Source: Escherichia coli
Lineage (GTDB): Bacteria > Pseudomonadota > Gammaproteobacteria > Enterobacterales > Enterobacteriaceae
Assembly: GCF_045037415.1 (NCBI RefSeq)
Contig: NZ_CP173438.1
Length of the DNA: 64,000 bases
Direction: 5' to 3' (one strand)
Shown: positions 32,201 to 35,200 of the stretch, one piece after another
Position numbering within the stretch: the stretch's first letter is position 1
Layout of the letters: each line of letters begins with the position of its first letter
Position numbers: made by a program

Positions 32201-35200
32201 TCAAACATCACGGAAAATGCAGGTGTATTTATCAAGTTCTGACTTGTTAACCAACAGCAACACGATCCTGAAAGGTGCGGAAGATAATGGCGTAGGATTT
32301 ATTCTTGAAAGTAATGGTACGCCAGTCACACTTTTAAATATCACTAACAGCAGTAAAGGATATACAAATTTAAAAGAAATTGCGGCAAAGTCAAAACTTA
32401 CAGATACAACGGTTTCAATTCCGATAACGGCCAGTTACTACGTCTACGATACAAACAAAGTTAAATCTGGCGCACTGGAGGCAACCGCATTAATCAACGT
32501 GAAATACGACTAATAACAAGCAAGACGAGCAAGTGGCTAATAATAAAAATATTAAGGTGTCTGCATTCCCCCCTCTCTCCGAGGGGGCTTTTTTTTAGCG
32601 ATGATAAAAAATCTCACCGTCGTAGGCTTTAATGATTTTACCGTCGGTGTCGCTGATCAACACGTACGCGCCACCCATATAGGTCCAGTGCGTCCCGGCA
32701 TCAGGCGCGGGCAGGTTACGTAACTGCCACTGCTTAATGTTGTACTCATCGGTGCGGTACATCTCTGGGACGGTGTCACCTGGTTTGAAATGCTTAAAGT
32801 CAGCAATGAAACTGCTTAACTCATACTTAGAAATTCCCGAGGTATTGGTCGAACCCGCGGTGGCTGGTGCGGCCCAGGCGGCACTGGTAACCAGCAAAAG
32901 CGCACCCAGCAACATCTTATTTTTAATGGTCATAAACTCTCCACTTTGGGGATCTGTAATATCAGTCGCATATCTTTCCTGCCATACAATATAACTGACA
33001 AGCGATATTTTGTTAGTGATCCCATGATTTCGTAAAAAGTGTAAATGAAAGGATGCCCTAAAAGCATCCTTAGCGAGCAGAGAGTCAGCGGAAATAGCTG
33101 ATTTAAGAATCATCCTGGGCTGAAGATAACATGCAAGCCTAAAGGATTGAGTTATCGCATTATGCCCATGAAGCCATGTACGCCCATATACACACCAACT
33201 AAGCCAATCAACAGACTGGAAAAATAGGGAGCGCGTTTAGCGAGAGTGTTAAATCCGCTCCAGCGTTTTGCGACCTGCTGAACGCTGATTGCTGCGCCAA
33301 CGCCTACGGTGACAAGCGTTAACGCCAGGCCGAGGCTGAAACTGACGACCAGTGTTGTGCCCAGTGTCAGGGCTTTCAACTGAATGCAAATCAACAGCAC
33401 GGTAATTGCTGCCGGGCAGGGGATAAGGCCACCGGTTAAGCCAAATAGCAAAATTTGCCAGTTGGTGACCTCTCTACCATCAAAGCGTCGTTTAATGTCA
33501 TTGGCATGGGCTCGTGCATGGGCATCCTGATACTCGCCATGTTCGTGATGGTGATGATGTCCATGGTCGTGGTGATCTTCGTGATCGTGGTGATGATGCT
33601 CATGATCATGCTCGTGCATATTCTCCAGCCAGTTGCGTTCGCCGCGCCAGGTACGCCAGAACATCCAGAACGCGGTGCTAATAATGATCACTGCGGAAAT
33701 CAACTGGAGCCACGGTTCTGCTGATTGAGCAGTAAAGCGTTTGCTGATCACCATCCCGCCAAAGGCAATTAACCAGACCACTGCGGTATGCGAAATAGTT
33801 GCTGCCAGTCCGAGCATCACCGCCTGTTTAATGGTGCCTTTGATGGCGATGATAAACGCCGCCATCATCGTTTTTGAGTGCCCCGGTTCCAGACCATGAA
33901 GCGCACCAAGTAAGATGGCGCTGGGGATGAAGAACCAGGCGTTTCCTTGCTGAAGAAGTGTTGTAAATTCGGTCATGATAATAATTCTTAGTATTAATTC
34001 GGCAATCTGATTCTACTCCCCCCCAGTACCTGATACTACCCCCCAGTAGATTAATAGTGCTATGATTTTTCATATTCTTGTTAACCAGGTGTTGCCATGT
34101 CTCATACAATCCGTGATAAACAGAAACTGAAAGCGCGTGCCAGTAAGATTCAGGGCCAGGTCGTGGCGCTCAAGAAAATGCTCGACGAACCGCATGAATG
34201 CGCTGCAGTTTTACAACAGATTGCTGCTATCCGTGGCGCGGTAAACGGTCTGATGCGGGAAGTGATTAAAGGCCATCTGACGGAACACATCGTTCACCAG
34301 GGGGATGAGCTAAAACGTGAAGAAGATCTGGATGTCGTTCTGAAGGTGCTGGATTCTTATATCAAATAATTTCACAACGTTATTGTAATACCGCCGTTTT
34401 TCCCCGTTTACAACGCGTGCGCTGGACATTACCATCCTCCTCTGCGATTTATTATCGCAACCAAACGACTCGGGGTGCCCTTCTTTGTGAAGGCTGAGAA
34501 ATACCCGTATCACCTGATCTGGATAATGCCAGCGTAGGGAAGTCACGGACCACCAGGTCATTGCTTCTTCACGTTATGGCAGGAGCAAACTATGCAAGTC
34601 GACCTGCTGAGTTCAGCGCAATCTGCGCACGCGTTACACCTTTTTCACCAACATTCCCCTCTTGTGCACTGCATGACCAACGATGTGGTGCAAACTTTTA
34701 CTGCCAATACCTTGCTGGCGCTCGGCGCATCGCCAGCGATGGTTATCGAAACCGAAGAGGCCAGTCAGTTTGCGGCTATCGCCAGTGCCTTGTTGATTAA
34801 CGTTGGCACGCTGACGCGGCCACGAGCGCAAGCGATGAGTGCTGCCGTTGAGCAAGCAACACGATCACAAACGCCCTGGACGCTTGATCCGGTTGCGGTT
34901 GGTGCGCTCGATTATCGCCGCCGTTTTTGTCTGGAACTTCTGTCCCATAAGCCAACCGCCATACGTGGTAATGCTTCGGAAATCATGGCATCAGCTGGCG
35001 TTGCTAATGGTGGACGGGGAGTGGATACCACTGATGCCGCAGCTAACGCGATACCTGCTGCACAAACACTGGCACGGGAAACTGGCGCAATCGTCGTGGT
35101 CACTGGCGAGGTGGATTATGTTACCGATGGACATCGTATCATTGGCATTCACGGTGGCGATCCGTTAATGACCAAAGTGGTAGGAACTGGCTGTGCACTA

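Follow-up and report, generated by a model that had tools for sequence, protein, structure and literature searches.

The 5' leader that precedes thiM on the plus strand is, with a probability that we put at about 97%, the Escherichia coli thiM TPP riboswitch, through which the thiMD mRNA is subject to a translational OFF switch. In support of this assignment, the analysis of the window, by which we mean the whole 64-kb stretch of DNA, showed that the RNA belongs to the TPP family, lies before the thiMD genes, is nearly identical to its K-12 counterpart, and can form the alternative pairings in silico. The thiM riboswitch is among the best-studied riboswitches. It is already known and already annotated in RefSeq, and biologically nothing here is new; the case serves rather as a positive control for the reading of raw sequence, a classic cis-regulatory RNA having been recognized with the correct boundaries, gene context, and mechanism.

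A scan of the window with Rfam covariance models at gathering thresholds matched two families in total, with a single match to the TPP family, RF00059, at 71.2 bits against a curated gathering score of 54.3 (E = 5e-12). The match was full-length, covering model positions 1 to 105 of 105, and was not truncated. A preliminary description made from the sequence alone had placed a TPP riboswitch in the thiMD leader at 34460-34591 and had named the RF00059 scan as the way to check it; the significant match, together with thiM and thiD lying directly downstream, bears this out, and the span corresponds to the aptamer plus an expression platform that runs to the base preceding the thiM AUG. The aptamer ends 34 nt before that AUG, on the same strand. 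The coordinates of these and the other features are collected in Table 1.

Helices P1 to P5 all aligned to RF00059, forming two arms that meet at a three-way junction, with two noncanonical pairs flagged, and the optional P3a was missing from the aptamer. Both sensor junctions, CUGAGA for the pyrimidine and ACCUGAUC...GCG for the pyrophosphate, were present, identical to those of K-12, and invariant in nine of nine aligned leaders. It is through these two junctions that the ligand is contacted. In thiM numbering, which places nucleotide N at window position 34456 + N, the ligand-contacting positions (G40, G42, A43, G60, C77, and G78) could all be read directly in the sequence. The ACCUGAUCUGGAUAAUGCCAGCGUAGGGAA block was likewise identical to that of K-12 and invariant in all nine leaders. 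Selective TPP binding has been published for the K-12 sequence, as cited in PMC5499598 and PMC10450168.

Two open reading frames touch the same bases, one of 83 amino acids on the minus strand (34310-34561) and one of 79 amino acids with a TTG start on the plus strand (34561-34800), and we give next to no credence to the notion that the region is protein coding through either of them. Both exist mechanically, but neither had a Pfam match even at an E value of ≤1, neither is annotated in RefSeq genomes of identical sequence, and conservation follows the helices and junctions of an RNA.

Table 1. Features of the thiM leader and its surroundings, in window coordinates
Feature	Position	Strand	Basis or remark
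rcnA, with His-rich loop	33152-33976	-	Upstream of the leader
rcnR	34097-34369	+	Upstream of the leader, divergent from rcnA
Promoter-like site	34407-34435	+	-35 TTTACA (34407-34412), 17-nt spacer, -10 TACCAT (34430-34435)
TPP riboswitch aptamer (THI element)	34461-34557	+	RF00059; PGAP "TPP riboswitch" at the equivalent bases of an identical genome
P1	34467-34470 with 34541-34544	+	Aptamer helix
P2	34471-34474 with 34504-34507	+	Aptamer helix
P3	34477-34483 with 34489-34494	+	Aptamer helix; apical loop 34484-34488
P4/P5	34513-34522 with 34529-34538	+	Aptamer helices
Aptamer differences from K-12	34485-34486	+	UU for GC in the P3 apical loop; the only ones in the aptamer
Pyrimidine-sensor CUGAGA	34494-34499	+	Direct reading; same in K-12
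ACCUGAUCUGGAUAAUGCCAGCGUAGGGAA block	34512-34541	+	Direct reading; same in K-12
Anti-anti-SD GGGAAG	34537-34542	+	3' side of aptamer: end of P4, junction, start of P1 3' strand
Linker hairpin, GGAC/GUCC type	34548-34559	+	Between aptamer and anti-SD; in both ON and OFF folds
Anti-SD UUGCUUCUUC	34561-34570	+	Partner of GGGAAG (ON) or of the SD region (OFF); constraint folding
Ribosome-binding region AGGAGCAA	34581-34594	+	SD GGAG 34582-34585, thiM AUG 34592-34594; direct reading
thiM, hydroxyethylthiazole kinase	34592-35380	+	ORF; TIGR00694, 329 bits (cutoff 256); RefSeq name
C-rich, G-poor tract	34628-34662	+	thiM codons 13-24; corresponds to published rut site
10-bp stem-loop	34665-34692	+	In thiM ORF, ends at codon 34; terminator-like scan; corresponds to published pause stem-loop
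thiD, HMP/HMP-P kinase	35377-36177	+	ORF; TIGR00097, 362 bits (cutoff 205); RefSeq name

Both thiM and thiD exceed their NCBIfam equivalog cutoffs, and the 4-nt overlap between them fits a single operon (34592-36177, plus strand). Upstream of the leader, a consensus scan found one promoter-like site versus 0.6 expected by chance, a match that is weak when taken alone, and both of its hexamers are the same in K-12. Nucleotides 174 to 271 of the published transcript are codons 9 to 40 (PMC5499598), so that the AUG falls near nucleotide 150 and +1 therefore near 34443. From this correspondence we infer a transcription start at about 34443, 8 nt past the -10-like hexamer, and, by the same numbering, the window positions of the Rho elements that enter the main reading. 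The Ni/Co efflux locus (33152-34369) lies directly upstream, with rcnB further to the left according to the RefSeq annotation of an identical genome. Since the terminator-like scan turned up nothing from the rcnR stop codon to the promoter-like site of thiM, transcription could conceivably continue from rcnR into the leader. Elsewhere in the window, RF00112 matched in full length at 50900-50985 on the minus strand (101.8 bits against a gathering score of 47; E = 3e-19); this is the known CyaR/RyeE sRNA, its location agreeing with the E. coli map position.

Several RefSeq E. coli chromosomes carry the segment from 34300 to 34700 with 100% identity, and 5,424 of 5,426 complete E. coli genomes had a match to it. 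In strain SK1144, one of those with 100% identity, PGAP places a TPP riboswitch at the exact equivalents of the aptamer bases, between rcnR and thiM. In the feature table of K-12 MG1655 (NC_000913.3), no riboswitch appears in the interval from rcnR to thiM (locus coordinates 1803-2024). The preliminary remark that ORF-based annotation misses the element is thus right for ORF-only calling and for the K-12 table but wrong for PGAP, which annotates it in RefSeq E. coli genomes. Over 34370-34620, the window and K-12 were 97% identical in a pairwise alignment, and from 34487 to 34609, a span that takes in the entire expression platform, the SD, and the AUG, they were the same. The description of the element as a known cis-regulatory RNA holds: it is essentially the experimentally characterized K-12 thiM riboswitch, two loop bases apart and with an identical platform.

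Those two adjacent substitutions are the one reason to suspect that this copy has decayed or has been functionally altered through the GC-to-UU change in its aptamer, which we regard as very improbable. Both bases lie in the P3 apical loop, outside the helices and the ligand-contacting junction; in thiM numbering they are nucleotides 29 and 30, away from the ligand-contacting nucleotides. The same UUUG loop occurs in the thiM leaders of Enterobacter and Superficieibacter, the covariance model score is well over the gathering score, and the exact 88-nt aptamer allele was found in 932 of 5,412 E. coli genomes (17% of complete E. coli genomes), a minority allele. The distribution of the sequence argues that the UU version of the P3 loop is a common natural allele rather than a product of decay.

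In the published model for K-12, TPP stabilizes the aptamer, which leads to a stem that sequesters the ribosome-binding site and the AUG (Bastet et al. 2017, PMC5499598), and the translational OFF switch of thiM has been restated or corroborated since (PMC11487190, PMC10450168, PMC7815308). TPP binding, translational repression, and Rho dependence are taken in our reading from published K-12 experiments. The leader in the window has the parts for such a stem. Its SD, GGAG, stands 6 nt before the AUG and belongs to the 3' strand of an 8-bp helix that could form between 34561-34568 and 34581-34588, in agreement with the earlier claim that the thiM SD is embedded in the expression platform, and the helix was switchable in silico. 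In the free minimum-free-energy fold, the anti-SD (34564-34570) paired with GGGAAG and neighboring aptamer bases, leaving GGAG largely unpaired; when the Rfam aptamer structure was enforced, 34561-34568 re-paired with 34581-34588, and the mean unpaired probability of the SD fell from 0.46 in the free leader to 0.01 under this constraint folding. The two pairings of the anti-SD, with the SD or with the aptamer strand, were mutually exclusive in silico, and the leaders of K-12, O157:H7, and E. albertii showed the same shift. The minimum free energy of the leader was no better than that of shuffled sequence (z = -0.62), and folding stability was dropped as a criterion. An unexceptional folding energy is usual for bistable RNAs.

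The switch would then work as follows. When TPP is scarce, GGGAAG would pair with the anti-SD UUGCUUCUUC, and with the anti-SD so occupied GGAG would be free and thiM translated. When TPP is bound, the aptamer would close from P1 to P5 and GGGAAG would be withdrawn, and the released anti-SD could pair with AGGAGCAA (34581-34588), blocking ribosome loading. As a secondary effect, untranslated thiM mRNA would bare the C-rich tract on which Rho is proposed to load, and Rho would terminate near the pause stem-loop, lowering the mRNA of the whole thiMD operon.

An aptamer of this family could also act mainly through a Rho-independent (intrinsic) terminator placed in the leader, the arrangement of Bacillus, instead of through sequestration of the SD; many Firmicutes TPP riboswitches are so built. 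A 1.2-fold drop in mRNA with TPP in a cell-free system (PMC10450168) could be read in the same sense. No hairpin followed by a U tract was found from the aptamer to the AUG in a scan for terminator-like sites, however, and the one site of that kind is in the thiM ORF, where it corresponds to the Rho pause stem-loop of the literature. The SD itself sits inside the switchable helix, and in K-12 a translational fusion of just 6 thiM codons is repressed by TPP, whereas in transcriptional fusions repression requires 34 codons or more (PMC5499598). We therefore hold control by a leader terminator to be highly unlikely and retain the translational OFF switch.

A degenerate aptamer pattern scan of genome contigs returned at least 120 loci from many phyla, and a tblastn search with ThiM singled out, among the loci listed, seven enterobacterial ones with thiM directly after the aptamer. 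With three E. coli alleles these made ten leaders, nine of which were aligned. The OFF-state structure was paired in 87% of cells across the nine leaders, versus 32 to 60% when the partners were slid, and at five of its pairs, distributed over P3, the linker hairpin, and the SD helix, both partners had changed. Among the aptamer helices, compensatory changes were confined to P3, the others being invariant in this shallow set of nine. The SD helix had two pairs with double changes and 83% of its cells paired, in an alignment of nine sequences whose linker region aligns poorly. GGGAAG and GGAGC were invariant in nine of nine leaders, and CUUCU was kept in eight to nine. For the linker hairpin, 60% of cells were paired by column, a figure that the unreliable alignment of this region makes hard to read; the orthologues carry a hairpin at this position that differs in sequence and length.

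The pairs of the ON state, 90-95 with 125-130 in alignment coordinates, were kept in seven to nine of the nine leaders, and no covariation beyond that of shuffles was detected for this helix in a set that is shallow and misaligned in the linker. An anti-SD that has to be complementary to the SD and, in the other state, to a conserved strand of the aptamer is under a three-way constraint that would itself suppress variation. The comparative data are thus compatible with the model and do not independently prove the ON helix. Folding predictions for the ON and OFF states were consistent within Escherichia and inconsistent in Citrobacter, Enterobacter, and Acerihabitans; given the inconsistency in distant genera, per-orthologue folding was dropped as support beyond Escherichia.

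Downstream of the AUG, the first codons of thiM appear to carry the sequences of a thiM-type Rho arm, a rut tract and then a stem-loop within the first ~34 codons. In the C-rich tract, 25-nt stretches reached 44% C and 0% G at 34638-34662, or about nucleotides 196 to 220 from the inferred start, and the stem-loop, at -13.6 kcal/mol, falls at about nucleotides 223 to 250; its sole difference from K-12, at 34681, is in the loop. The published rut site of thiM is at about nucleotide 200, with Rho protecting nucleotides 201 to 210, and termination occurs at nucleotides 231, 237, and 262 (PMC5499598), which correspond by the inferred numbering to about 34673, 34679, and 34704. Regulation of thiM mRNA is lost when either the C-rich region or the stem-loop after it is mutated, and Rho termination inside the first ~34 codons is secondary to the translational OFF switch (PMC5499598). 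The regulatory unit would thus reach about 100 nt into the thiM ORF, beyond position 34591, where the preliminary description had ended it.

In about 700 genomes, judged from the spread of BLAST matches, the spacer between rcnR and thiM is interrupted. Strain EC571 (NZ_AP027436.1) has a 9,706-bp island there, with a tyrosine integrase, a GmrSD endonuclease, a recombinase, and IS3. The island is flanked by 82-nt direct repeats (locus coordinates 458-539 and 10164-10245) that equal window positions 34458-34539, nearly the whole aptamer, with each copy annotated as a TPP riboswitch. In O157:H7 strains (NZ_CP038309.1, locus 230-2500), an insert of about 2.2 kb with genes for an outer membrane protein, a hypothetical protein, and an HTH-like remnant lies between rcnR and the riboswitch, and homology with the window starts at 34458. 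This insert shares the HTH-like gene with the right end of the EC571 island and looks like a remnant of such an island; it replaces the promoter-like region 34370-34457, and thiMD in those strains therefore needs a different promoter. A different arrangement is seen in NZ_LR882057.1. The element there, satellite-like and about 7.6 kb long, encodes an integrase together with Icd-like and PerC genes, and each of its ends (locus 12380-12401 and 20001-20022) bears the 14-nt core AGAAATACCCGTAT (window 34497-34510). The aptamer is split by the element, and no riboswitch is annotated. A prophage with a terminase lies next to thiM in O157 strain Al Ain, with the same right junction as in NZ_LR882057.1. 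After recombination at the core, thiMD keeps only the 3' half of the aptamer and an intact expression platform.

Among 5,412 E. coli genomes, 235 had two copies of the aptamer and 75 had a partial aptamer only. We give about even odds to the proposal that, across E. coli strains, mobile elements of at least two kinds, each carrying an integrase, also use the aptamer as their chromosomal attachment site, which is empty in the window. The first kind of element appears to leave thiM with a complete riboswitch in front but with the native promoter about 9.7 kb away. If the proposal is true of the second, the half-aptamer would be blind to its ligand and thiMD would be uncoupled from TPP control. 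A search of a phage collection found no record that carries the aptamer as attP, and a limited literature search found no paper on thiM or the riboswitch as an integration site. Mobile elements that target the aptamer in other strains are the only lead here that is new, and mildly so.

The closest known system is the K-12 thiM riboswitch, the RNA used for the first description of a TPP riboswitch and for crystal structures. The two share the locus order rcnR, leader, thiM, thiD, as well as the promoter hexamers, platform, SD, and start codon. They differ in the P3 apical loop (UGCGU in K-12, UUUGU in the window), in one base upstream of the aptamer (34453), and in 44 nucleotides and 13 amino acids of thiM, one of these differences being the loop change at 34681 in the pause stem-loop. 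The tbpA (thiB) and thiC riboswitches of E. coli belong to the same aptamer family but lie at other loci, outside the window. They follow the same general logic as thiM, combining sequestration of the SD and AUG with a Rho effect at the mRNA level, and the site of Rho action varies, being within the riboswitch itself for thiC, requiring about 12 codons for tbpA, and requiring 34 codons of coding sequence for thiM (PMC11487190). Firmicute TPP riboswitches, such as the Bacillus thi-box leaders, have an aptamer of the same family joined to a terminator/antiterminator platform; in contrast, the leader in the window is without a leader terminator, and the SD is the element that is controlled.
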